Shown: positions 43,713-64,000 of the stretch, in pieces
Numbering within the stretch: position 1 is the first letter of the stretch
Layout: each line of letters starts with the position of its first letter
Source: Mycobacterium sp.
Lineage (GTDB): Bacteria > Actinomycetota > Actinomycetes > Mycobacteriales > Mycobacteriaceae
Direction: 5' to 3'
NCBI GenBank assembly: GCA_026393245.1
Contig: JAPLAO010000133.1
Location: 642-64,641, forward strand
Length of the DNA: 64,000 nucleotides
Notes under the pieces: model-generated
What the model saw: only the letters and a program-made list of their open reading frames with translations
Told to the model about the DNA's origin: nothing
The model's database searches: none
Position numbers and translations under genes: made by a program

Positions 43713-44639
43713 CGAGTCGTATTCGCGGGCACACCGACACCGGCACTACCGTCGCTGCAGCGACTGATCGACTCGGCGCACCATGACGTCGTCGCCGTCC
43801 TCACGCGCCCGGACGCCATGGCCGGCCGGCGGGGGAAACCGGCACCATCTCCGGTGGCGCAACTCGCCTTCGACGCCGGCATCCCGGTGCTGCGACCGGA
43901 TCGGCCGAATTCCCCAGAGTTCATCGCGGAATTAACCAGGATCGCGCCCGATTGCTGCGCGGTGGTCGCCTATGGCGCACTGCTGAGTGCCCAGATGCTC
44001 GCGGTGCCGCCGCACGGCTGGGTCAATCTGCACTTCTCGCTGCTGCCGGCTTGGCGTGGCGCCGCACCTGTGCAGGCTGCCATAGCTGCTGGTGACTCCG
44101 TAACCGGCGCAACAGCATTCAAGATCGAACCCGCACTGGACTCGGGTCCGGTGTATGGGATCGTGACCGAGACGATCCGCGCCCACGATACCGCGGGAGA
44201 GCTGTTGGACCGTCTGGCACTATCGGGTGGAGAGCTACTGGAGGCCACGCTGGACGGGATCGCCGACGGGTCCCTGACGCCGGTTCCGCAGGCTGCCGAT
44301 GGTGTGAGCATGGCGCCGAAGGTTTCGGTGGACGAGGCTCGAATCCGGTGGGATCTGCCCGCGCATGTCATCGATCGCCGTATTCGGGCGATGACGCCGA
44401 ATCCCGGTGCCTGGACGATGATCGGGGATATGCGTATCAAAGTCGGTCCGGTCAGCATCGAGGAATCCGGTGATGCTTCGGAATCCGGCGTCATCGTGGT
44501 GGAACGGTCGCGCGTACTAATCGGGACCGGATCGGTCCCGGTTCAACTCGGCCAGATCCAGCCGCCCGGAAAGAAGCCGATGGTGGCGGCGGACTGGGCG
44601 CGTGGGGCTCGTCTTGATGCTGGAGTGCGCGCATCGTGA
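43710..44639 (+). CDS. fmt: Methionyl-tRNA formyltransferase
   Basis: [34 protein letters not shown]. Confidence 0.97.
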
Positions 44640-46033
44640 GCCAGCAGCCCGGTGAACGCAGCGGCAGCAGCAGGCGGCCGCGACGAGTGCAGTTGGACCC
44701 GGCCCGGCGCGCCGCCTTCGATGTGTTGCGTGCGGTGTCCGAACGAGATTCCTACGCCAACCTGGCGCTGCCGGCCATCCTGACCGAACGCGGCATCACC
44801 GGACGGGACGCGGCGTTCGCGACCGAACTGACCTACGGCACCTGCCGCACCCGCGGCCTCCTGGACGCCGTCATCGCCTCGGCTGCGGGCCGGCCCATCG
44901 ACCAGATCGACACGGTACTGCTGGATCTGTTGCGTCTCGGTGCCTATCAGCTGCTGCGGACCCATGTCGCCGCGCACGCCGCGGTGTCCACGACGGTCGA
45001 GCAGGCCGGCGTCGAATTCGATTCGGTGCGAGCCGGTTTCGTCAACGGCGTGCTGCGGGCCATTTCCAAACGCGACGAGAAATCGTGGGTGGCCGAGCTT
45101 GCGCCACCGGCCGCCATGGACCCTATCGGCCATGCCGCGTTCGTCCACGCGCACCCGCGCTGGATCGCACAGTCGTTCGCCGATGCACTCGGTGCCGACG
45201 CCGCCGAACTGGATGCGGCCCTGGCAGCCGACGATGCCCGGCCGGCCGTACACCTTGCCGCTCGGCCCGGTGCCCTGAGCGCTGAGGAACTCGCGGAGGC
45301 TGTCGGCGGGGAGGTCGGACGCTACTCGCCCTATGCGGTGTATCTCGGAAGTGGTGACCCCGGTGGGCTTGCCGCGATCCGCGACAGCCGGGCCCTGGTT
45401 CAGGACGAGGGCAGCCAGTTGGTCGCTCGCGCGCTGACTCTTGCCCCGCTGACCGGTGCGGACGGCGGCCGCTGGCTGGATTTGTGTTCGGGTCCGGGCG
45501 GTAAGACAGCTCTGATCGCCGCGATCGCCGCACCGCGGGGTGCAAACGTCATCGCGATCGAACCCAACCCGCGTCGAGCCGAGATGGTTGAACAGAACAC
45601 CCGTGGACTGTTGGTCGACGTGCTGCGCGTCGACGGTCGCGATACGTCGCTGCCGACCGGCAGTTTCGACCGGGTCCTCGTCGATGCGCCCTGCACCGGC
45701 CTCGGGGCCCTGCGGCGGCGGCCGGAAGCGCGGTGGCGGCGTACTCCCGCTGACGTCCCTGAACTGGCCAAGCTGCAGCGTGAACTGCTGGCGTCGGCGA
45801 TCGACCTGACCCGGCCCGGCGGTGTGGTGCTCTACGCGACCTGTTCGCCGCACCTGGTCGAGACTGTGGGCGTGGTCGCCGACGCGCTGCGGCGCTATCC
45901 GGTGACCGCCCTGGACGCGCGCCCCCTATTCGAGTCGGTTGCAGACCTCGGCGCCGGGCCCTATGTGCAACTGTGGCCGCACCGGCACGGAACCGACGCA
46001 ATGTTCGCCGCGGCGCTTCGCAAGGATCCGTAA
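44636..46033 (+). CDS. rsmB: 16S rRNA m5C methyltransferase RsmB/Fmu
   Basis: NusB-like N-domain, [35 protein letters not shown]. Confidence 0.93.
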
Positions 46034-46050
46034 GCCTTACAGTGGCAGCC

Positions 46051-46737
46051 ATGACACCACCGACCCGGCCGATGATCGCACCGTCGATTCTGTCCGCAGA
46101 CTTCGCCTGGCTCGCCCGCGAGGCTGCGGCGGTCGAGGGTTCGGACTGGCTGCACGTCGACGTGATGGACGCGCACTTCGTTCCGAATTTGACCCTCGGA
46201 CTGCCGGTGGTCGAAAGCCTGCTCGGGGCGACCGACATTCCGATGGACTGCCACCTGATGATCACCGACCCGGGGCGCTGGGCACCGGGCTACGCCGAAG
46301 CCGGTGCCTATAACGTGACATTCCACGCCGAGGCCACCGACGATCCCGTCGCAGTGGCCCGTGATATCCGCGCTGCCGGTGCCAAAGCGGGGTTGTCGGT
46401 TAAGCCGGGTACCCCGATCGAGCCCTACCTGGAGATCCTGCGCGATTTCGACACATTGCTGATCATGAGTGTCGAACCGGGTTTCGGCGGCCAGAGTTTC
46501 ATGCCCGAGGTGCTGACCAAGGTTGCGGCCGTGCGCCGATTGGTCGACTCCGGTGAGCTGACGATCCTGATTGAGATCGACGGCGGAATCAACGCCGACA
46601 CCATCGAGGCGGCCGCCGCGGCCGGTGTGGACTGCTTCGTGGCGGGCTCGGCGGTCTACGGTGCCGCCGACCCAGGCGCCGCCGTTGAGGCCCTGCGCCG
46701 TCAGGCTGGTCACGCTTCGCCCCATCTGCACGTATGA
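46051..46737 (+). CDS. rpe: Ribulose-phosphate 3-epimerase
   Basis: [37 protein letters not shown]. Confidence 0.98.
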
Positions 46738-47750
46738 CTGCGCCCGCGCACATCACTGCCGCGATGCGCCTGGCGATCGAACAGGCGCAGCGCGTGAAGG
46801 GGTCCACCTACCCGAATCCGCCGGTGGGCGCGGTGATCGTGAGCGCAGACGGTGACGTCGCCGGCGTGGGCGCCACAGCGCCGCCGGGCGGACCGCACGC
46901 CGAGGTGGTCGCCCTGCGGGCCGCAGGGCAGCGTGCGGTCGGTGGCACAGCGGTGGTGACGTTGGAACCGTGCAACCATCACGGTCGGACACCGCCGTGT
47001 GTCGACGCGCTCCTGGAAGCGAATATCGCAAGCGTCGTCTACGCAGTCGCCGATCCGAATCCGATCGCCGCCGGTGCTGCTACTCGGTTGTGCGCCGCCG
47101 GTGTCGAGGTAACCGCCGGGGTGTGCGCCGAGGAGGTGGCGGCCGGATCCCTTCGGGAGTGGTTGCACAAACAACGTACCGGCCTGCCGCACGTGACGTG
47201 GAAATTCGCCGCCAGTATCGATGGCCGAAGTGCGGCAGCGGACGGGTCGTCGCAGTGGATCACCGGGGATGCGGCACGTGCCGATGTACATCGTCGCCGG
47301 GCCGCCGCGGATGCCATCATCATCGGGACCGGAACCGTCTTCGCTGACAATCCCAGCCTGACGGCCCGCCTACCGGACGGCGGCCTCGCTGATCGCCAAC
47401 CGTTGCGGGTGGTGGTGGGCAAGAGGGAGATTCCGCCGGAATCTAATGTGACACTGGGGGATTCGCCCACTATGGTGTTGCATTCCCATGATCCGCACGA
47501 GGTGATTCGGGCCCTGTCTGCTCGCACCGACGTGATCGTGGAAGGTGGCCCTACCATTGCGGGCGCGTTCCTCCGGGCCGGTGTCATCGACCGAATCCTG
47601 GCCTACGTCGCGCCGGTTCTGCTGGGCGGACCCTTCAGCGCGGTGGACGATGTTGGAGTTGCCGGCATTGCGAGTGCGCTGCGATGGCGTTACGACGGTG
47701 TGGAACAGATCGGGCCGGACCTGTTGATCAGCCTCGTGCCGCCGAATTGA
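46734..47750 (+). CDS. ribD: Bifunctional riboflavin deaminase/reductase
   Basis: [37 protein letters not shown]. Confidence 0.96.
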
Positions 47751-47761
47751 TAGATCCGGGT

Positions 47762-48757
<996 letters not shown>

Positions 48758-48761
48758 CGGT

Positions 48762-49799
48762 TCAGGGTCCTCCGAATGCTCGTGCGGGGTCGACCGTCAC
48801 CGCGCGGCGCAACCCTGCGACGCTGGCCAGCACGCCGATGGTCACCGCGACGACGGGCAGCAGCAGAAACGCGATCCTCGGGATGTCCACCCGCATCGGG
48901 AACAGTGGTCCCAGCAGTACCGACAGCACGCCGCCCAGCAGTGCCGCCAGGACCGCGACGATGACGGCCTGCATGGCAAGTCCGGCCAGGATGGAACGGG
49001 TCGGAACCCCGACCGCTTTGAAGACCGCGAAATCCCTGGTGCGTTCCATCGCCGACATGTAGATCATCGACCCCACGATCGAGGCTGCAACCAACCAGAG
49101 CAGTCCGGCCATCAGTGTCATCGCCTGCCGCGCGCCACTGAGAGCCCGCAGGAGGTCGTCGACTGCTCCGGCACGGTTGATGATGCGAAATCCGTCCGGC
49201 GCTGCCGAAGGCGCGCCCTGCAACCCGACCGAGGTGATGAGCGACTGGCCGGAGAACAATAGTTTCTGTGCGCCGGGAATGGTGAGGAAGACGTTGGGCT
49301 GGCCGGCCAGCGCAGTTGAGTCCTCCGCGAGTCCGACGATTCGCAATGGAAGAGAACCGATTTCGACGGTATCGCCGATCGCCCTGCCCATCGTTGTCGA
49401 TACCGCGACCTCATCCGGAGCCGACGGCGGACGTCCGTCGACCATCGCCGGGATACCGGGTCCGCGCTCTGGCGCACCGAATACGTTGACGCTGCGTGCC
49501 GAATCCCCGTCGGGCATCGTCGCGCTTCCGTAGACCAGTGGCACCGATGTGCTCACGCCGGGCAGTTGCATCTTGGTGGGGGGGAAGGCCGATGAGCCCA
49601 GGAATGGCCCGGTCGCGCCGGACTTGACCAGGAATGCGTCCAACTGCAGGGAATCGACGGTCCGGTTGGCCTCTACCCGGAAGCCGTTGGCCAGGCCGGT
49701 GAGAACCAATGTCATCGCGAAGACCAGGCCGGTGCCGACAATGGCAATCGCGAAACGCCGCTTGCGCCATTGCAAATCGCGCAGTGCAGCGATCAACAT
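48762..49799 (-). CDS. FtsX/MacB-type ABC permease (Rv0072/Rv2563-like)
   Basis: ALRDLQWRKRRF, ERTRDFAVFKAVG, RRAVTVDPARAFGG. Confidence 0.9.
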   Translation of the reverse strand: MLIAALRDLQWRKRRFAIAIVGTGLVFAMTLVLTGLANGFRVEANRTVDSLQLDAFLVKSGATGPFLGSSAFPPTKMQLPGVSTSVPLVYGSATMPDGDSARSVNVFGAPERGPGIPAMVDGRPPSAPDEVAVSTTMGRAIGDTVEIGSLPLRIVGLAEDSTALAGQPNVFLTIPGAQKLLFSGQSLITSVGLQGAPSAAPDGFRIINRAGAVDDLLRALSGARQAMTLMAGLLWLVAASIVGSMIYMSAMERTRDFAVFKAVGVPTRSILAGLAMQAVIVAVLAALLGGVLSVLLGPLFPMRVDIPRIAFLLLPVVAVTIGVLASVAGLRRAVTVDPARAFGGP

Positions 49800-49862
49800 G
49801 TCGTCACCCGCATGCGGGCGACGTTACCCACCGCGGGGTGATCGGGTGGTGGCTCACCGTGA

Positions 49863-51443
49863 TTAGCCCGGTAATCTCGCGCCACTGCTTGATGGTGCGG
49901 TCACATCTGATCCCTCGTCGGCATGACTCTGGCGGCCTCCGATGAACAACGCGAACACGGCCCCGACCAGGCAGACGATGGTGGTGATGAAGAAGATCGA
50001 TCCGTACTGCATGGCGAAGGCGTTACGACTGTTCTTAGCGACGCCGGTGGCGATCTCCAAGATGCTGCCGGTGGGTTTGGGCAGCGTGGCCAAAATCTGG
50101 TTGAACCGGTAGAGGCCCCAGGCGCTCAGCGCCGAGACGCCGATCAGCATGCCTGTCATCCGCGCCACTACCACCAGCGAGGAGGCGATCCCGTGCTGGG
50201 CAGAAGGAACCACGCGCAGCGCGGCTGAGGTGAGCGGACCGATTACCAGGCCCAGCCCGAAACCGGCGAGCGCGAGGTCGGTGCCGAAAACAGGCAGGCG
50301 CACCACACCGAGATCGTGGTGGGCGGACAGCACATCGACGCCCCACTGCGACACCAGCCAGTAGGCGAATGCCGCGATCACCATGCCCACGACAGCCACC
50401 ACCCGATCACCGATCCGGGTGGCGACCCAGCCGCCGATCAGTGCGCCGATGGGTAGTGCGGCCAGGAAGTGCAGCAGCAGGAAGGCGGCCCCGTTCTGAT
50501 CCTTGCCCAGCACGCCCTGTCCGAACAGTTCGACGTTGACCAGGGTGACCATCAGTGCGGCGCCAGCACACATCGAGGTGGCAAGGGCGGTCAGGAACGG
50601 ACCGAACTTCACTCCCCGCGGTTCGATCAGCCGGGTCGTGGCGAATCGCTCCCACACCGCGAACGCGATCGCGGCCAGCGCGGCGCCACCCAACAAAACC
50701 AGACCGTGATTCGGCAGAATCTGCTTGCCGTCGGGGTTGGGGTTGTAGAGGCCCCACACCGCGAGGCCGAGTGCGATCGCGAGCAGCACGCCCCCCACCA
50801 CGTCGACGCGTTCGGGTTTGTCGCTGCGCTCGTGCGACGGAAGGCTGATGTGGATCAGCCCCATGGCGATCAGCGTGAGTGGCACGTTGATCCAGAACAC
50901 GTCGCGCCAGGTGTTGAGCAGCCACACCACACCGATGCCGTACAGCGGGCCCAGCACGCTACCCAGTTCTTGCGCTGCCCCGATTCCGCCCAGCACCGCG
51001 GCTCGGCTTCGCGCCGCCCACAGGTCTGCGGCCAGGGCAAGGGTGACCGGCAGCAGCGCGCCGCTGGCGATGCCCTGGATCAGGCGGCCGATCACCAGCG
51101 TGGTCAGATCGCCGGACAGCGCGGTCACCACCGAGCCGGCGGCGAACGTGGCCAGGCTCAGTTGCAGCACGAGTTTGCGGCCGAACCGGTCAGACAGCCG
51201 GCCCAGTAACGGCATCGCGGCGATGTATCCCAGCAGATACACGGTGATGATCGGTGTGATCTGCTGGATCTTGTTGATCGGGATATTGATCGACCGCATG
51301 ATGTCGACCATGATCGTGACCACGACATAGGTGTCGAGCGCCCCGAGCAGGACGGCGAGACTGCCGGCGCCGATCGCGGTACGACGACCACGGCCGACGT
51401 TCGTGGTCCGATCGACTGCGGCGGCGGGGTCCTGCGGCATCAC
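49863..51443 (-). CDS. MFS efflux/lipid transporter P55 (Rv1410c-like)
   Basis: 14-TM MFS ([20 protein letters not shown]); co-oriented with lprG. Confidence 0.92.
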
Positions 51444-52135
51444 ACCGCGGGCTTGGTGACGGTGACCGGCTTATCCCATTCGGACAGGGTCAACTGCACG
51501 CTGTTGCCTTCGCTCTGGTCGACCTGGGCCTGAACCAGTTGGTTCGGTGCGTCCTTCTCGATCCATACCGTGGCCGGCAGCGGTCCGCTGGCTTTCAGCG
51601 GCGGAATCAGCTTGTTCACCGCGGCGGCCGCGACAGTGCCGCTGATCTTGACGGTCGGCACGCCACCGATGGTCTCGAAGCCCTGCGCCTTGGCGTCGGT
51701 GATATTGGTGAGCATATTGGCCAGCCCGGCATCGGGGTTCAGGATCACCGATGCATCGTAAATGTCAGCGGCCGGGCCCATATCGAGCCAGCTGTTGGGG
51801 GTGAGCGTCGCGTAGAGCGTGCCATCGAGCACCACGAGGCCTTGAACGTCGAGATCGCTGCCGCCCATCGAAATTGTCGCGCTCCCCGTGAGGGCGACCG
51901 CTGGCACATTGGTGAGGTCACCGGAGAGCCTCTTGATTGGCAGGCCGTCGACCTTGCCGTTGACGACGATCTCTAGGTGGGCACTCTGGAGCGCTTTGGT
52001 GGCGGCGATGGACTGGCGCAGCAGTCCGGCGGCGTCCGGCAGCGGTTCGGATGGCTTCTTCGAGCAGCCCGAGATGAGCAGGGCGGCGGCGAACAGGGCG
52101 GCCAGGGCGGCGAGGATGCGGCGAGTCGTCGACAT
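51440..52135 (-). CDS. lprG: Lipoprotein LprG
   Basis: Lipobox LLISGC, LPDA..LL, LSGDLT, LNPD.GLAN.L, WDKPV.VTKP; start ATG 52135. Confidence 0.92.
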
Positions 52136-52222
52136 AGGGGCATCGTAGTGGGTCGGGCGGGCAGTGCCGCGGCGGCGAGGCCGAGTGGTCGCCGGATCCG
52201 AGGTCACCGCTAGATTGAGGCC

Positions 52223-52960
52223 GTGTTCACCGGAATCATTGAAGAAGTTGGGGAGATCGTCGCCACGGACGACCTCGGCGATGCCGCGCGTCTGATCATC
52301 CGCGGACCCGTGGTGACCGTCGATGCTCGCCACGGCGACTCCATCGCTGTCAACGGCGTGTGTCTGACCGTGGTCGACGTGCTCTCGGACGGACAGTTCA
52401 GCGCTGACGTGATGGCAGAGACCCTGAATCGCTCTAGCCTGGCCGTACTCGCGGTGGGCAGCCAGGTCAATCTGGAACGGGCCGCTGCCGTGAACAGCCG
52501 GCTTGGCGGTCATATCGTTCAGGGCCATGTGGACGGCACCGGCGCGGTGATCTCGCGCTCTCCATCGGAGCACTGGGAGGTGGTTCGAATCGCGTTGCCG
52601 CGGGAGATCTCTCGGTATGTAGTGGCAAAAGGCTCAATCACGGTCGACGGCATTTCGCTGACGGTGTCTGCGCTGAGCGATGAGCCTCTCGGGCGAAGAG
52701 CAGATGATCCTGATGAGCCTCTCGGGCGAAGAGCAGATGATCCTGATGAGCCTCTCGGGCGAAGAGCAGATGATCCTGATGAGCCTCTCGGGCGAAGAGC
52801 AGATGATCCCGATGAGCCTCTCGGGCGAAGAGCAGATGATCCCGATGCGCAAGCGCTGACCACTCTCGGGAGCGCTGCCGTCGGCACGCCGGTCAATCTC
52901 GAGGTTGACGTCATCGCGAAGTACGTCGAGCGGTTGATGTTGCATAAAGACGGCGGTTAA
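52223..52960 (+). CDS. ribC: Riboflavin synthase alpha chain, interrupted in frame by a tandem array (possibly non-functional)
   Basis: MFTGIIEEVG, GDSIAVNGVCLT, GGHIVQGHVDG, KGSITVDGISLTV, VNLEVDVIAKY; array replaces the expected F.V.LIP.T segment. Confidence 0.9.
   Translation: MFTGIIEEVGEIVATDDLGDAARLIIRGPVVTVDARHGDSIAVNGVCLTVVDVLSDGQFSADVMAETLNRSSLAVLAVGSQVNLERAAAVNSRLGGHIVQGHVDGTGAVISRSPSEHWEVVRIALPREISRYVVAKGSITVDGISLTVSALSDEPLGRRADDPDEPLGRRADDPDEPLGRRADDPDEPLGRRADDPDEPLGRRADDPDAQALTTLGSAAVGTPVNLEVDVIAKYVERLMLHKDGG
52679..52843. repeat. 5 x 33-bp tandem array (DEPLGRRADDP x5)
   Basis: gatgagcctctcgggcgaagagcagatgatcc(t/c) x5, head to tail, no spacers. Confidence 0.95.
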
Positions 52961-53295
52961 CGCCCAGTAGCGGGCAGCGTCGCGATCCCGTCCAGCGATT
53001 CTGCATGCTCGGCCAACCCGATCAGCACCTCGCCAAGCTCGCGCGCCTGAGCCGGGGTCAGGTCGACCACGATGGGCAACTCCCTACCCCCGATGACCAC
53101 ACCGCCGTCTACACGAACCGCGACACCGCTGACGGTTGACCCGTTGCGGTGCTGCACTCCGGTCAGCAGAGCCGCGATATCGCCAACCGTCACCGGGTCG
53201 GCGCCGTACACGCGGTCATGGAACCGTGCATCCCACTCGCCGACCCATGCGGTGCCGGCGGGTGGTGCGGTGGTGGGGTCGGAACCGGTGTTCAT
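52957..53295 (-). CDS. Hypothetical protein (112 aa)
   Basis: ATG start; LTPAQARELGEVL.. helix; convergent ttaa overlap with the ribC stop; coding status inferred. Confidence 0.6.
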   Translation of the reverse strand: MNTGSDPTTAPPAGTAWVGEWDARFHDRVYGADPVTVGDIAALLTGVQHRNGSTVSGVAVRVDGGVVIGGRELPIVVDLTPAQARELGEVLIGLAEHAESLDGIATLPATGR

Positions 53296-53548
53296 GGCTG
53301 AATATCCTTCCGGTCAGCTCCCACATATTTGAGACTGCAGCAGCAGGACTCCACCTGTGAAAAGGCACGGTACGCACAGCGTAAAGTGATCCCGACTCGC
53401 GAAATTCGTCGAGCGGTTGCTGGGCGAGCGTCGGTCATAACCGGCCATTTTGGTGGTTCATGCTGAATCCAGCAGTATTGCTGGGAATTCCTGAGGTTTT
53501 TTGGGTAATCAGGTAGTCGAGTAATCGGGTGACAGGCAGGCGGCAACG

Positions 53549-55727
<2,179 letters not shown>

Positions 55728-55771
55728 TGCAGCACCCCCGGCGGTCTGGCGCCGGTACTAGCCTGAACACC

Positions 55772-57838
55772 GTGGCCGATCCCGCGACGTACCGCCCGGC
55801 GCCGGGGTCCATCCCGGTCGAACCCGGCGTCTACCGTTTCCGGGATGCCCGCGGCAGGGTGATCTACGTCGGGAAGGCCAAGAGCCTGCGCAGCCGGTTG
55901 TCGTCGTACTTCGCCGATGTCGCCGGCCTGCATCCCCGCACCCGCCAGATGGTGACCACCGCCGCAAAGGTGGAGTGGACGGTGGTCGGCACCGAGGTTG
56001 AGGCACTGCAACTCGAGTACAACTGGATCAAGGAGTTTGATCCGCGGTTCAACGTCCGCTACCGCGACGACAAGTCCTATCCGGTGCTTGCGGTGACACT
56101 CAACGAGGAGTTCCCGCGGCTGATGATTTATCGCGGCCCACGTCGCAAAGGTGTGCGCTACTTCGGACCGTACTCGCACGCCTGGGCGATTCGGGAGACG
56201 CTCGATCTGCTGACGCGGGTCTTTCCGGCGCGTACCTGTTCCAGCGGAGTGTTCAAGCGGCACAGGCAAATCGAGCGTCCCTGTCTGCTCGGCTATATCG
56301 ATAAATGCTCGGCGCCCTGTATCGGCCGAGTCAGCGCGGAGGAACATCGCAGGATCGTGGGTGACTTCTGCGATTTCCTGTCGGGTAGGACCGACCGCTT
56401 TGCCCGTGATCTGGAGCGCCAGATGAATGCCGCCGCTGCAGAACTCGACTTTGAGCGGGCGGCGCGGTTGCGTGATGACATCGGTGCGATCAAACGGGTA
56501 TTGGAAAAGCAGGCGGTCGTGCTCGGAGACGGCACCGATGCTGATGTCGTCGCATTCGCCGACGATGACTTGGAAGCCGCGGTGCAGGTGTTCCACGTGC
56601 GCGGCGGCCGGGTTCGCGGTCAGCGAGGCTGGATCGTCGAGAAGCCCGGCGACCCGGGCAACTCCGCACAGGCTCAACTGGTTGAGCAGTTCATCACCCA
56701 GTTCTACGGCGCTGAAGCCGAATTGGGCGGCCCGCCTGAAGCCGAATTGGGCGGCCCGCCCGTCGCCGAATTGGGCGGCGCAGCAGACGAATTGGGCGGC
56801 GCAGCGGACGAAACCAATAATCCGGTGCCGCGGGAGGTGCTGGTGCCATGCCTGCCGCCCAATGCCGCCGAACTCAGTATCTGGTTGTCCGGGCTGCGCG
56901 GTTCGGCGGTGTCGTTACGGGTGCCTCGTCGAGGCGATAAGGCCGCACTTGCCGAGACGGTTCACCGTAACGCTCAGGAGGCTTTGGTACAGCACAAGCT
57001 CAAGCGAGCCGGCGACTTCACCGCGAGATCGGCTGCGCTGCAGAATATTCAGGAATCGCTTGGCCTTGCCGATGCGCCGCTGCGGATCGAATGCATCGAT
57101 ATCAGTCATGTGCAAGGCACCGATGTGGTGGGCTCGCTGGTGGTGTTCGAGGACGGCCTGCCGCGCAAGTCCGACTATCGACATTTCGCGATTCGGGAGG
57201 CGGCCGGGGATGGCCGCTCCGACGACGTGGCATCGATCGCGGAGGTCACCCGGCGTCGTTTCCAGCGTCACGTCGTCGATGTCGAGGCGTCGGATTCCGC
57301 CGAACCGGTGGGCACCGACAAGCCCCGCAGGTTCGCCTACCCGCCGAGCCTCTTCGTGGTCGACGGTGGCGCGCCACAGGTGAACGCCGCGGCGCGGGTG
57401 CTCGACGAACTCGGCGTCACCGACGTTGCGGTGATCGGACTGGCCAAGCGGCTGGAAGAGGTCTGGGTCCCCGCCGAGGCCGATCCGGTGATCCTGCCCC
57501 GCAACAGCGAAGGGCTCTACCTGCTCCAACGCGTACGCGATGAGGCACACCGGTTCGCCATCTCCTATCACCGCAGCAAGCGGTCCAAGCGGATGACCGC
57601 GTCTGCTCTGGACTCGGTGCGTGGGCTGGGGGAGACCCGTCGCAAGGCGTTGGTTACCCACTTCGGGTCGCTGGCGCGGATTCGGCAGGCCAGCGTCGAA
57701 GAGATCACCGCGGTGCCGGGTATCGGAGCCGCGACGGCCGCGGCGGTTCTCGAAGCCCTCAGCGGTGACACCGATCGCGCGAGTTCGGATGCATCCGGCG
57801 ATGCGGTGGGCGATGATTCACAGCGAGCATCGCCATGA
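55772..57838 (+). CDS. uvrC: Excinuclease ABC subunit C
   Basis: PGVY...[12 protein letters not shown] (GIY-YIG), [31 protein letters not shown], HhH. Confidence 0.98.
56712..56812. repeat. Nested 24-bp x2 and 21-bp x2 duplications in uvrC (ELGG x4)
   Basis: ctgaagccgaattgggcggcccgc x2; gaattgggcggcgcagc(a/g)gac x2. Confidence 0.85.
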
Positions 57839-58782
57839 CAGAAAACAGTGCAGGGAACATCAACGCCGTCCGGGGCGACGGCGCGGTACATGTCGGCGCC
57901 GTCCGGGGCGACGGCGCGGGAGACATCGACGTCGTGCTCGTGACCGGATTGTCCGGCGCCGGCCGCGGTACCGCCGCGAAGGTGCTCGAGGACCTGGGCT
58001 GGTATGTGGCCGACAACCTGCCGCCTGAACTCATTGCGCGGATGGTGGATTTGGGACTGGCGGCCGGATCGCGCATCACTCAACTCGCGGTGGTGATGGA
58101 TGTCCGCTCGCGCGGGTTCACCGGTGATCTGGACCTGGTTCGCCAGGACCTGGCTACCCGTGACATCACCCCGCGGGTGTTGTTCATGGAAGCGTCCGAC
58201 GACATCCTGGTGCGCCGCTACGAGAACAACCGTCGCAGTCATCCGCTGCAGGGCAATCAGACTCTGGCCGAGGGCATCACCGCGGAGCGCCGAATGCTGG
58301 AACCTGTCCGCGCCGCCGCCGATCTGATCATCGACACCTCGGCGTTGGCGGTTCCAGCGTTGCGCGCGAGCATCGAACGCGCCTTCGGTGGCGAGACCAT
58401 CGCGCAGACCAGCGTGACGGTGGAGTCGTTCGGGTTCAAGTACGGATTGCCGATGGACGCCGACATGGTGATGGATGTGCGGTTCCTGCCCAACCCGCAC
58501 TGGGTGGACGAATTGCGGCCGCAGACCGGCCAATCATCTGCTGTCCGGGACTACGTGCTTGCTCAACCCGGTGCGGCGGAGTTCCTGCAGACTTACCATC
58601 AGTTGCTGAAGCTGGTGGCCGACGGCTATATCCGGGAGGGAAAGCGGTACATGACGGTGGCTATCGGTTGCACGGGCGGTAAGCACCGCAGTGTCGCCAT
58701 TGCCGAGGCGCTCGCCGGGTTGCTGACTGAGAACCCGCAACTCTCGGTGCGGGTCCTGCACCGGGACCTGGGGCGCGAATGA
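57835..58782 (+). CDS. rapZ: RapZ/YvcJ-family P-loop nucleotide-binding protein
   Basis: [45 protein letters not shown]. Confidence 0.95.
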
Positions 58783-59897
58783 CAACACGGGCGTCCGGGG
58801 GAACCTCGCCGCGTATCGTGGCGATGGGCGGCGGCCACGGCCTGTACGCGACGCTGTCGGCCGCGCGTCGGCTGACGCCGCATGTGACCGCGGTCGTCAC
58901 CGTCGCCGACGATGGCGGATCCTCGGGCCGGTTACGGTCCGAACTCGACGTCATACCACCGGGCGACCTGCGGATGGCACTGGCCGCTTTGGCATCCGAC
59001 AGCCCCCAGGGCCGGTTGTGGGCCACGATCATCCAACACCGGTTAGGTGGTAGCGGAGCGCTCGCGGGCCACCCGATCGGCAATTTGTTACTGGCCGGCC
59101 TCAGCGAAGTGCTCGCCGATCCGGTGGCGGCACTCGACGAATTAGGCCGAATGCTCGGGGTGAACGGCCGCGTACTGCCGATGTGCCCGCTTGCGTTGCA
59201 GATCGAGGCCGACGTAGCAGGTCTGGAAGCTGATCCCAGGATGAGCCGGGTGATCCGGGGCCAGGTCGCGGTGGCCACTACGCCCGGAAAGGTGCGGCGG
59301 GTTCGGTTACTGCCCGGTGATCCGCCCGCCACCCGGCAGGCCGTCGACGCGGTGATGGCCGCCGACCTCGTGGTGCTCGGGCCGGGGTCGTGGTTCACCA
59401 GTGTCATCCCGCACGTGCTGGTGCCAGGTTTGGTCGCTGCACTGAAGGCCACCCGCGCCCGTCGGGCTTTGGTCTTGAATCTGGCAGCCGAACCCGGTGA
59501 GACAGCAGGCTTTTCGGCAGAGCGGCATCTGCATGTGCTGACCCAGCACGCGCCGGGACTGACGGTGCATGACGTCATTGTCGATGCTGGCCGGGTGCCG
59601 TCAGAACGTGAACGCGATCAGCTTCGCCGAACGGCGACCCTGCTGGAAGCGTCGGTGGAATTTGCTGATATTTCCCGACCTGGTACACCTTTACATGACC
59701 CGGCGAAGCTGGCTGAAGTGCTCGATGCCGTTCGTGTGCGGGGTACGGGGGTGTCGACGATCGAGGTGCCGAGCATGGAAGTACCGACCATCGAAGTGCC
59801 GACCGCCACCGTGGCGTCGGCCGAGGCAGGCCGGCAGCCGGACCGGATGCGCCGACTCACCGGCAATGGACCGAGAGGTGACGACCCGTGGCGATGA
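58779..59897 (+). CDS. YvcK/CuvA-family UDP-GlcNAc-binding protein
   Basis: [45 protein letters not shown]. Confidence 0.93.
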
Positions 59898-60871
59898 CTG
59901 CTGAGGTCAAAGACGAGCTGAGCCGTCTGGTCGTTAACTCCGTGAGCGCGCGTCGCGCCGAGGTGGCATCGCTGCTGCGCTTTGCCGGCGGGCTGCATAT
60001 CGTGTCAGGCCGGGTGGTCGTCGAGGCCGAGGTCGACCAGGGCAGCATCGCCCGGCGGCTCCGCAAGGACATCCACGACCTCTACGGCTACAGCGCCGTC
60101 GTGCACGTGTTGTCGGCCACCGGAATTCGCAAGAGCACCCGATATCTCATTCGGGTGGCCAAGGACGGTGAGGCGCTCGCGCGCCAGACCGGACTGCTGG
60201 ATATGCGCGGGCGCCCGGTGCGCGGACTGCCCGCCCAGGTGGTGGGCGGCAGCGTCGGCGATGCCGAGGCTGCCTGGCGTGGCGCTTTCCTGGCGCACGG
60301 CTCGCTGACCGAACCCGGTCGGTCCTCGGCGCTGGAGGTGAGTTGTCCGGGACCCGAGGCTGCACTGGCCCTGGTCGGCGCCGCGCGGCGGCTGGGAATC
60401 AGCGCCAAGGCGCGCGAGGTGCGTGGCATCGACCGGGTCGTGATCCGGGACGGGGAGGCCATCGGCACCCTGCTCACCCGGATGGGCGCCCAGGACACCC
60501 GTTTGACCTGGGAGGAGCGGCGCATGCGTCGCGAAGTTCGGGCGACCGCCAACCGGCTGGCCAACTTCGACGATGCCAACCTGCGCCGTTCGGCTCGGGC
60601 CGCGGTGGCTGCGGCAGCGCGTGTGGAGCGCGCCCTGGAGATCCTGGCCGACACAGTTCCCGATCACCTGGCCGCTGCCGGACAACTCCGGGTGGAACAC
60701 CGTCAGGCGTCGCTGGAGGAGTTGGGCCGTCTGGCGGATCCGCCGATGACCAAAGACGCTGTCGCCGGGCGCATTCGGCGGCTGCTGTCGATGGCCGACC
60801 GCAAAGCCAAGCAGGACGGTATCCCCGATACCGAGTCGGCGGTCACGCCCGATCTGCTCGAGGATGCCTGA
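59888..60871 (+). CDS. whiA: Cell-division DNA-binding protein WhiA
   Basis: [51 protein letters not shown]. Confidence 0.98.
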
Positions 60872-60942
60872 GCCGCCCGGCTCGCAATAATTACTGAGCC
60901 GCCCGGCTCGCGAAAATTACTGGGCCGCCCGGCTCGCGAAAA

Positions 60943-60945
<3 letters not shown>
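60868..60945. repeat. 3 x 26-bp tandem repeat with internal palindrome between convergent stops
   Basis: ctg(a/g)gccgcccggctcgc(aat/gaa)aatta x3; gagccg..cggctc inverted repeat in the units. Confidence 0.9.
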
Positions 60946-62964
<2,019 letters not shown>

Positions 62965-62991
62965 GCACTGACCGGAAGAGACTGAAGAACA

Positions 62992-64000
62992 GTGGCCGTC
63001 CCAACGCTTGCCGACCTGCTGGCTGAGGGCGTCGCAGGCCGCGGCATCCTGGTCCGCTGCGATCTCAATGTTCCACTCGACGATCGCGGCGTCGTCACCG
63101 ACGCGGGCCGCATCGACGCATCCGTGGCGACATTGAAGGCGCTCTCCGACGCCGGGGCCAAGCTGGTGGTGATCGCGCACCTGGGCCGTCCCGAGGGCGG
63201 TGCGGACCCCAAGCTGTCACTGGCCCCGGTGGCGAAGGTGTTGGGCGAGAAGTTGGGTCGGCACGTCCAACTGGCCGGCGACGTGGTCGGCACGGATGCG
63301 TTGGCTCGTGCGGAGGGCCTCACCGACGGAGACATCCTGCTGCTGGAGAACATCCGGTTCGATCCCCGCGAGACCAGTAGGGACGACGCGCAGCGACTCG
63401 CGCTGGCCAAGGCTCTGGTCGAGTTGGTTGATTCCCCGGGTGGGCGCCTCGGCGCGTTCGTGTCCGATGGTTTCGGTGTGGTCCATCGCAAGCAGGCCTC
63501 GGTGTACGACATCGCGACGCTGCTACCGCATTACGCGGGCACCCTGGTGGCGGCCGAGGTCAAGGTGCTCGAACAGCTGAGCACCACCGGCCAACGGCCC
63601 TACGCGGTGGTGCTCGGCGGATCCAAGGTGTCCGACAAACTCGCCGTTATCGAGAACCTGGCCGGCAAGGCCGACAGTGTCGTCATCGGCGGCGGAATGT
63701 GCTTCACCTTCCTTGCCGCCCAGGGGGTTTCGGTGGGCAAGTCGCTGCTGCAGGAAGAGATGATCGACACCTGCCGTCGACTGCTCGAAGAATTCGGTGA
63801 CGTGATCCACCTGCCGGTGGACATCGTGGTCGGATCAGAGTTCTCAGCCGATTCCACGCCGGAAACCGTTGCCGCCGAACAGATCCCGGATGACAAAATT
63901 GGCCTGGATATCGGGCCCGAGTCGGTTCGGCGCTTCACCGCACTGCTGTCCAACGCGAGGACCATTTTCTGGAACGGCCCCATGGGAGTTTTCGAGTTCC
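62992..64000 (+). CDS. pgk: Phosphoglycerate kinase, 3'-truncated by window edge
   Basis: [49 protein letters not shown] (read manually; not in the ORF track). Confidence 0.97.

Follow-up and report, generated by a model that had tools for sequence, protein, structure and literature searches.

Does ribC of a mycobacterium encode a riboflavin synthase that has lost part of its fold, or has the sequence been miswritten beside a tandem repeat? The question is raised by a 64,000-nucleotide stretch of DNA from Mycobacterium sp. (contig JAPLAO010000133.1; hereafter the window), in which ribC (also called ribE) occupies positions 52223..52960 on the + strand as an open reading frame (ORF) of 245 amino acids that matches the Pfam family Lum_binding (E=9.8e-41). 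As written, the encoded protein carries five in-frame copies of a 33-bp unit in its second lumazine-binding barrel and lacks a strand of that barrel. The comparisons below indicate that array and loss are separate events, the array being a natural insert found in related enzymes and the loss a 51-bp deletion private to this assembly, for which an assembly or consensus error and a real null allele are weighed against each other.

The repeat array and the missing strand of RibC

The N-terminal lumazine-binding barrel of the window protein is intact (52229..52483, + strand), the best Pfam stretch, residues 3-87, covering profile positions 1-86 of 86. The first part of the C-terminal barrel runs to the SLTV strand (52520..52672, + strand; residues ~100-150), and here the best stretch for the C-terminal half covers profile positions 1-52 of 86. 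At the hairpin turn that follows, after SLTVSAL(S/G), lie the five tandem units (52679..52843, + strand), which start at 52679, 52712, 52745, 52778 and 52811, three of them ending in CCT and two in CCC. Tandem Repeats Finder reported a period of 33 bp with 5.1 copies, 99% matches and a score of 324 over 52679-52847; a shuffled sequence used as control for the 33-bp unit gave 0 matches. Each unit codes for DEPLGRRADDP and consists of an invariant 24-nt core, GATGAGCCTCTCGGGCGAAGAGCA, and a variable 9-nt tail (GATGATCCT in three units, GATGATCCC in two). The protein around the array reads DGISLTVSALS(DEPLGRRADDP)x5 DAQALTTLGSAAVG, with DAQALTTLG coming after the array. In the DNA, the array is followed by a remnant of the native tail that holds the deletion junction (GATGCGCAAGCGCTGACC; 52844..52861, + strand), delimited by alignment with the related loci L081, L082 and L083, and then by what remains of the C-terminal barrel together with the C-terminal helix (TLGSAAVGTPVNLEVDVIAKYVERLMLHKDGG; 52862..52957, + strand), which are the same as in contigs from independent metagenome runs. 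The ORF is without (D/E)WFEVSLIPTTLA, the WFEVSLIPTT strand of its C-terminal barrel; WFEVSLIPTTL is invariant in the 30 aligned intact homologs. Thus, both observations from which the original prediction started, five in-frame 33-bp units in riboflavin synthase and the absence of a conserved strand between SLTV and LTTLG, are confirmed. An exact-match look-up of the 245-residue protein returned no record, and an exact 32-mer that includes the window's own unit tail had no match among species-representative genome contigs, which places the species of the window strain outside these genome representatives.

A protein search retrieved the 120 closest clusters of homologs, among them a graded series of close homologs of 203-242 residues from environmental, mostly freshwater, mycobacteria. 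These proteins carry 0-4 copies of a DEPLGRRA(D/E)xx unit between SLTVSAL(G/S) and (D/E)WFEVSLIPTT, with the strand retained; clusters with 0, 1, 2, 3 and 4 units number 68, 22, 19, 9 and 1, respectively. The strand is kept in 119 of the 120 clusters, the window being the sole 5-unit case and the sole strandless case, and each of the 51 other clusters with 1-4 units has its native strand. It had been proposed that the array replaces the conserved segment. This does not hold, because relatives carry both array and strand at the identical place; the loss of the strand is a separate deletion.

In solved riboflavin synthases (1I8D, 1KZL, 4E0F, 7WUO and 9RYJ) the turn joining the two strands has 4-6 residues, and at that hairpin turn the window protein has a 55-residue insert. 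Compared with its homologs, the array reads as a lineage-specific, copy-number-variable insert in a beta-hairpin turn. It is natural and tolerated in RibC, to which the units add a charged, probably disordered loop. A 33-bp mini-repeat of Mycobacteriaceae has thus settled in the RibC hairpin turn within a clade of environmental mycobacteria. Because 33 bp make 11 codons, the unit acts there as an in-frame variable-number repeat at every copy number, from 0 to 5 copies. The RibC of Mycolicibacterium canariasense (L001:3001-3621) has an unrelated 14-residue insert rich in Gly, Ser and Thr, GGVTGASEATGSDTG, at the same turn, which suggests that the turn accepts insertions generally and is a hot spot for them.

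A segment with one unit has the length of the native segment, and an aligner sets the last unit over the native strand with the Pro residues aligned. We considered whether the unit could be a frame-shifted copy of the strand, with which it shares TGATCCCGA and, in frame +1, an EEQMIP that resembles EVSLIP. This origin was rejected, as relatives hold unit and strand together and the unit also occurs at unrelated loci; on sequence grounds, the 33-bp unit is not derived from the native strand. A different resemblance concerns the native tail of the relatives, DEQAEG(A/T)S (GATGAGCAAGCAGAGGGAACCAGC; window 52844-52867 and the region of L081:3583-3606), which opens with the unit's GATGAGC and holds GCAGAGGG, like many unit tails. 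Decay of a unit, with an internal deletion, may have given rise to this tail. Decayed or partial units are seen in other homologs as DEHLGRRAVGS, DEALGRRAEVG and DEPLGRG.

The 51-bp deletion and its distribution

The DNA of the window was compared with its closest relatives, L081 (which encodes protein P0003) and L082 and L083 (which encode P0015). Past the last unit, the relatives read GATGAGCAAGC, then AGAGGGA(A/G)CCAGCGAATGGTTCGAGGTCTCCCTGATCCCCACCACGCT(C/G)GC and then GCTGACC, whereas in the window GATGCGCAAGC is followed directly by GCTGACC. What is gone between 52854 and 52855, within the junction stretch GATCCCGATGCGCAAGCGCTGACC, amounts to exactly 51 bp (17 codons, EG(A/T)SEWFEVSLIPTTLA), and the junction has a 2-nt microhomology, GC, at 52853-52854. 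Seven bases upstream of the junction, at 52848, the window has C where the relatives have A (GAG>GCG). The deletion starts 11 bp beyond the last unit; the removed DNA is unique rather than repeat, and no copy of the lost 51-bp segment was found elsewhere in the window. From these alignments, the strand was lost through an in-frame deletion of 51 bp, distinct from the array, next to which a single A>C change occurred.

Taken as written, RibC would have its second lumazine-binding barrel broken and is predicted to lack catalytic activity. Its C-terminal half gives a split match to Lum_binding of 63.8 bits, whereas intact relatives match over the full length with 85.3 bits (two-unit) and 93.7 bits (unit-free), and the inactive RibC that was one option in the original prediction is in this respect upheld for the sequence as written. 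AlphaFold, run with a shallow alignment, gave poor models for both the window protein (mean pLDDT 56.5) and the intact P0003 (61.3); at this low confidence, P0003 has a strand at residues 184-191 (WFEVSLIP) past a disordered loop, and the window protein has no strand in 148-206.

Public metagenomes gave a view of the same locus in related populations. Twenty runs, mostly from freshwater or lakes, hold much of the ribC region, and the contigs of 12 of them were examined after placement on the window at 80-90% likeness, at which an intact tail shows as inserted or changed letters. The tail was informative in 10 of the 12 runs, X8 and X25 being uninformative. For X1-X7, which come from three studies, one contig per run exits the array and runs on downstream with 18 extra and 11 changed letters, all within 52818-52852, as the intact tail appears when forced onto the window. 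Depth over the intact tail equals that of its flanks in these runs (36.3/33.3, 10.3/11.1, 17.1/16.9, 30.5/31.2, 10.7/12.2, 6.69/6.81 and 25/23.2 for X1-X7, respectively). The intact tail is present as loose ends in X11, X12 and X17 (AGAGGGAACCAGCGAATGGTTCGAGGTCTC; TTCGAGGTCTCCCTGATCCCCACCACGCTC). Contigs of X11 and X12 match the window up to 52854 and from 52853, and then pass into AGAGGGAACCAGCGAATGGTTCGAG... and ...TTCGAGGTCTCCCTGATCCCCACCACGCTC. Within 52821-52854, a single mismatch separates the window from the tail-entering contig of X11 and X12; it fits an A at 52848 and makes the neighbouring substitution private to the window too. In the rest of ribC, downstream of 52856, the window and the run contigs show no difference.

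The window junction occurs in no contig of the 12 runs examined, and four sampled junction words are absent from every indexed run. As a control, words holding the window's private single-nucleotide polymorphisms (SNPs) at two other places, chosen because the window departs there from X1, X2, X3 and X7 alike, do occur in several runs, namely X11, X12 and X25 for the first place and X11, X12, X17, X5 and others for the second; X5 is without window words at 56944-57011. Only this assembly has the 51-bp deletion and the C at 52848.

Fixed SNPs (~0.2-0.35%) separate the window from X1, X2, X3 and X7 over 44001-64000. There is no other indel against X1, X2 and X3, and one X7 contig has 24 gap letters at 56056-57888, probably another length polymorphism between strains. 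Elsewhere, the window has been assembled accurately and represents a haplotype that is closely related to, yet distinct from, those of the runs. At 62677-63343, where the GAPDH gene has its conserved 3' end and the next gene starts, all four runs show a 2- to 7-fold increase in depth. A repeat was considered for this spike (62.7-63.3 kb) and set aside in favour of cross-mapping of other actinobacteria.

A second substitution in ribC lies at 52626, where C for A (GAA>GCA) produces E135A in the otherwise invariant YVVEKGS motif; among 32 aligned sequences, Ala is present only in the window. The runs carry C at this position in X1-X4, X7 and X8, A in X11, X12, X17 and X25, and both in X5. Thus, E135A is a genuine polymorphism and not an error, and the strains that carry it have an intact ribC. 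The combination of alleles in the window, X1-type at 52626 and X11/X12-type at 45793/45796 and 56974/56981, is found in no single run; X11 and X12 have A at 52626 plus other differences in ribC. The window is either a natural recombinant or the product of an unindexed source run, or a contig stitched from co-occurring strains. If the source run is unindexed, little can be concluded for the source sample from the lack of the junction in other runs; if the contig is a mosaic of strains, an assembly problem at the heterogeneous array becomes more likely.

The array itself varies between these populations. The T-ending unit is absent in X4, X7, X8, X11 and X12 and present in X1, X2, X3, X5 and X25. 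Judged by depth ratios and by whether the contig of the T-ending unit is present, X11 and X12 seem to have arrays of two C-ending units, X4, X7 and X8 arrays of about three units, and X1, X2, X3 and X5 mixtures of T- and C-ending units, three to five in all. Joints in X1, X2, X4, X5 and X25 (52684-52853 and 52659-52889) come from divergent mycobacteria that bridge the array with 45 other letters or skip it. The bridging contigs, which have 13 mismatches in 81 bases, belong to divergent co-occurring mycobacteria, so the same lakes also contain relatives whose ribC is free of the array.

The gene order around ribC, a major facilitator superfamily (MFS) pump gene, an lprG-like gene, ribC, a small ORF, ribBA and ribH, matches that on the contigs of L081, L084 and L086. 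The lprG-like lipoprotein gene (51440..52135, - strand) is divergent from ribC and encodes a signal peptide and lipobox, with PF07161 found on the orthologs of L081, L084 and L086. Downstream, ribBA (3,4-dihydroxy-2-butanone 4-phosphate (DHBP) synthase / GTP cyclohydrolase II; 53549..54802, + strand) is full length at 417 residues, its Pfam families having been identified on the L081 ortholog. It is followed by a full-length ORF of 159 residues (54799..55278, + strand) that overlaps the ribBA stop and that we take, from its position and the usual operon layout, to be ribH (lumazine synthase). A ribH start overlapping the ribBA stop is the arrangement of the mycobacterial rib operon. With ribBA and ribH full length, the rib operon and the remaining ribC are free of decay. 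Riboflavin synthesis is normally essential in mycobacteria, and the original prediction had raised a second ribC as one way to bear the loss; a search of the 64-kb window, to which the answer is confined, found none.

Assembly error or null allele

Because populations of near-identical strains carry the intact gene, we think that this organism does not live with the loss; by the evidence, the loss is not the state of the lineage. Our leading reading, to which we give a probability of roughly 0.5, is that the assembly or its consensus went wrong locally, at the 3' edge of an array whose copy number and unit pattern vary between co-occurring strains. Several findings point toward such an error: the event adjoins tandem repeats that vary within the population; an unexplained substitution stands beside the junction; a normally essential enzyme is disabled while the rest of its gene, ribBA and ribH are pristine; and the lack of any single run holding the window's allele combination fits a contig stitched from co-occurring strains with differing arrays. 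The suggestion that the loss might be an assembly error was already part of the original prediction and stays viable, indeed slightly favoured, with the junction in no independent run and the intact tail in 10 of 12 runs. The mechanism then proposed for it, in which repeat units overwrote unique sequence, is not the simplest account of the bases.

A number of considerations weigh against an error. The window is accurate elsewhere, with 20 kb free of any other indel relative to X1, X2 and X3. De Bruijn graph assemblers rarely invent junction words that are absent from the reads, so that, if the assembly is a short-read one, actual DNA molecules should carry the junction. Rare variants are dropped from Logan contigs, and a minority deletion allele in the examined runs is possible. 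The source run is apparently unindexed, and intact tails elsewhere are no proof for the source sample. The AlphaFold models, with pLDDT of 56.5 and 61.3, are too poor to carry the claim of inactivity. Finally, direct repeats provoke deletions in mycobacteria, as described for M. smegmatis (PMC3519483), which makes a true event plausible.

Much of this argues for the chief alternative, a real private null allele, whose odds we place somewhat short of even. Here the 51 bp would have been deleted by replication slippage or error-prone break repair near the direct repeats, and the cells, with the same odds, would be riboflavin auxotrophs fed by their community or would rely on a gene outside the window. 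The clean 20 kb against X1, X2 and X3, a k-mer assembler's inability to make junction words that no read holds, and the 2-nt GC microhomology speak for a true deletion; so do the deletion rates raised by direct repeats in M. smegmatis (PMC3519483). In addition, the haplotype is a distinct one, so that absence elsewhere is expected of a private allele. Yet the strand is present in 119 of the 120 homolog clusters and in all 10 informative runs. An allele that inactivates a normally essential gene would need to predominate in its sample, the remaining gene and the rib operon are undecayed, and a second ribC is missing from the 64 kb. A second event is moreover needed for the extra A>C change. We slightly favour error over a rare null allele and regard the choice as undecided.

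That the enzyme is still active, with a repeat unit or the DAQA remnant substituting structurally for the lost strand so that the array in effect takes its place, as the original prediction implied, appears very improbable. The deletion is in frame, and the one-unit segment of native length, with the last unit aligned on the strand through its Pro, lends the idea some appeal; but DEPLGRRADDP is a charged peptide with much Pro and Gly, unlike the hydrophobic strand (WFEVSLIP), all 51 other array-bearing clusters retain the native strand, WFEVSLIPTTL is invariant in the 30 intact homologs, the Pfam domain is split, and the model, albeit of low confidence, has no strand in residues 148-206. Least probable of all, to the point of being negligible, is the reversible repeat-mediated on/off switch (a contingency locus driven by expansion and contraction of the array) that had also been put forward: copy number does vary among strains and samples, from 0 to 5, but an 11-codon unit stays in frame at every copy number, the 0-4-copy alleles all keep an intact barrel, and the lost 51 bp are unique with no donor copy in the window, so slippage cannot reverse the loss.

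A broken riboflavin synthase in a free-living mycobacterium, if true, would mean vitamin auxotrophy where the pathway is regarded as essential. Pending read-level confirmation, the ribC of the window is unfit to serve as evidence for auxotrophy or to be annotated as a functional ribC.

A dispersed 33-bp element of Mycobacteriaceae and its known counterparts

The more interesting part of this locus is not the strand loss but the dispersed 33-bp family to which the ribC units belong. Conservation of the core was measured on ribC orthologs that had been found by protein similarity, a set hence unbiased for DNA. In six sequences (the window, L081, L082, L084, L085 and L086) the 24-nt core is identical in 16 of 17 units. 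Synonymous differences affect 32-42% of identical-residue codons elsewhere in ribC versus 0 of 125 core-codon comparisons, which are non-independent. The core uses the codons AGA, CGA, CCT and GCA, and AGA accounts for 0 of the 47 Arg codons elsewhere in these ribC genes.

The exact core was found in 100 stretches of species-representative genomes and in 95 metagenome contigs (loci L088-L282), which clustering by flanks resolved into at least 39 distinct sites with arrays of 1-5 units; within the 64-kb window it occurs in ribC only. Carriers span many genomes of Mycobacterium and Mycolicibacterium, and the isolates among them include M. peregrinum, M. septicum, M. porcinum, M. brisbanense, M. 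moriokaense, M. frederiksbergense, M. neumannii, M. aquaticum, M. syngnathidarum and M. deserti, and some single metagenome-assembled genomes (MAGs) have it on several contigs. Successive units are spaced 33 bp apart in 81 of 88 pairs. Positions 1-24 are nearly fixed and positions 25-33 variable, the conservation of the core in this dispersed set being inflated by the retrieval of loci through the exact core.

Reading frames at the dispersed sites were called by the GC content of third codon positions (GC3), longest-ORF calling being unreliable in GC-rich DNA. About one third of the sites lie in frame within coding sequences. The DEPLGRRA frame is used in RibC, in Fpg (up to four copies), in an acyl-CoA dehydrogenase, in an AMP-binding ligase and in the ketosynthase-acyltransferase (KS-AT) linker of a polyketide synthase, and the MSLSGEEQ frame in ValRS and at the N-terminus of an old yellow enzyme (OYE)-type oxidoreductase. 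A stop codon occurs only in frame +2 of the unit, five of its six frames being open. At the pgk-tpiA boundary the unit lies in reverse orientation; the window stops short of the pgk-tpiA spacer, which is a recurrent site of the element in other genomes. Between rpoZ and coaBC (flank cluster 1, comprising L090, L093, L101, L186 and 29 others), the ATG of the unit opens a mini-ORF, MSLSGEEQ...; in 22 of the 33 loci its stop codon and the start codon of coaBC overlap, as ATGA or GTGA. This arrangement suggests that the mini-ORF is translationally coupled to coaBC, as has been described for mycobacterial interspersed repetitive units (MIRUs). The 9-nt tail of the last unit at this site seems shaped for the overlap with the coaBC start.

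Two other identities for the unit were tried and rejected. A hammerhead-like RNA (GAUGAG...CGAA) finds no support in Rfam, which over 52500-53000 returned only chance-level matches (E of at least 1.9, far under the gathering scores), nor in folding, since the z-scores of the minimum free energy (MFE) are +1.36 for the unit and +2.95 and +3.03 for the two strands of the array, that is, less stable than shuffles. Carriage of the unit by phages or plasmids was dropped, as blastn found no match in phage or plasmid collections. The core, its reverse complement and three peptides appear in no searchable paper, and keyword searches gave nothing specific. We could not find this MIRU-like 33-bp family described.

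With modest confidence, we infer that the core is kept invariant by an active, sequence-specific process; recent spread, gene conversion between copies and selection on the DNA are each possible sources of this invariance. A more ambitious reading, which we hold only tentatively and consider on the whole unlikely, joins these observations to the deletion. The invariant core would mark an undescribed mini-element of Mycobacteriaceae, held constant by mobility or by gene conversion through a dedicated enzyme. Its peptides, which we would with equal hesitation regard as ready-made modules (DEPLGRRA, MSLSGEEQ or ALRPRGSS according to frame and strand), would be put into surface turns of essential enzymes, and its mini-ORFs coupled in front of genes such as coaBC. 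On the same doubtful footing stands the idea that the instability of the arrays yields real null alleles, of which the 51-bp deletion in ribC would be one caught in a wild population.

If the element is truly undescribed, it would show that repeats can build peptide inserts into essential proteins in bacteria other than Rickettsia, and its arrays would supply natural variable-number markers by which environmental mycobacteria could be told apart. Its sites in these enzymes would map the loops that tolerate 11-55 additional residues. It would also become a known trap for metagenome assembly and annotation.

Set beside known systems, the window protein resembles riboflavin synthases in its two tandem lumazine-binding barrels, of which the N-terminal one aligns whole and the C-terminal one for the most part, and in its usual operon context; it differs in its 55-residue turn insert, in being, as written, without the LIPxT strand and in its split second domain. 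With contingency repeats the ribC array shares a tandem repeat within a coding region and a copy number that varies between strains. However, its unit consists of whole codons, and slippage alters the length of a loop and not the frame, with no on/off state.

The organisation of the dispersed family is best compared with that of MIRUs, which, in the portion of the literature summarised in PMC3184786 (Supply et al. 1997), have units of ~40-100 bp in tandem arrays at dispersed mycobacterial loci and contain a small ORF overlapping the next gene. As far as that account extends, the two have in common short units, tandem arrays, many dispersed mycobacterial loci and a polymorphic copy number, together with an intergenic operon site at which a small ORF overlaps the next gene (rpoZ-coaBC for the element). 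A GATGAG motif is common to both. The element differs in its unit length, 33 bp against the 40-100 bp given there, in being a multiple of three with arrays in frame and about one third of its sites intragenic, and in its presence in environmental and rapidly growing species. Local alignment to MIRU292 of M. avium subsp. paratuberculosis (PMC7977185), the one MIRU unit compared, showed a weak similarity, with p ~0.03 when the 33-mer was aligned and 0.52 when the core was.

A second counterpart is the Rickettsia palindromic elements (RPEs; Ogata et al. 2000), which the same summary (PMC3184786) describes in outline as inserted in frame within housekeeping genes. Within the limits of that outline, both are selfish-looking short repeats that occur in intergenic positions and in frame inside housekeeping genes; like an RPE, the element adds a surface peptide without destroying the host protein. 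By the same outline, the element is distinguished by its length (33 bp versus ~105-146 bp), by being tandem and not palindromic and by belonging to another phylum. Thus, the 33-bp family is closest to MIRUs in organisation and recalls RPEs in behaviour, and we count it as a member of neither.

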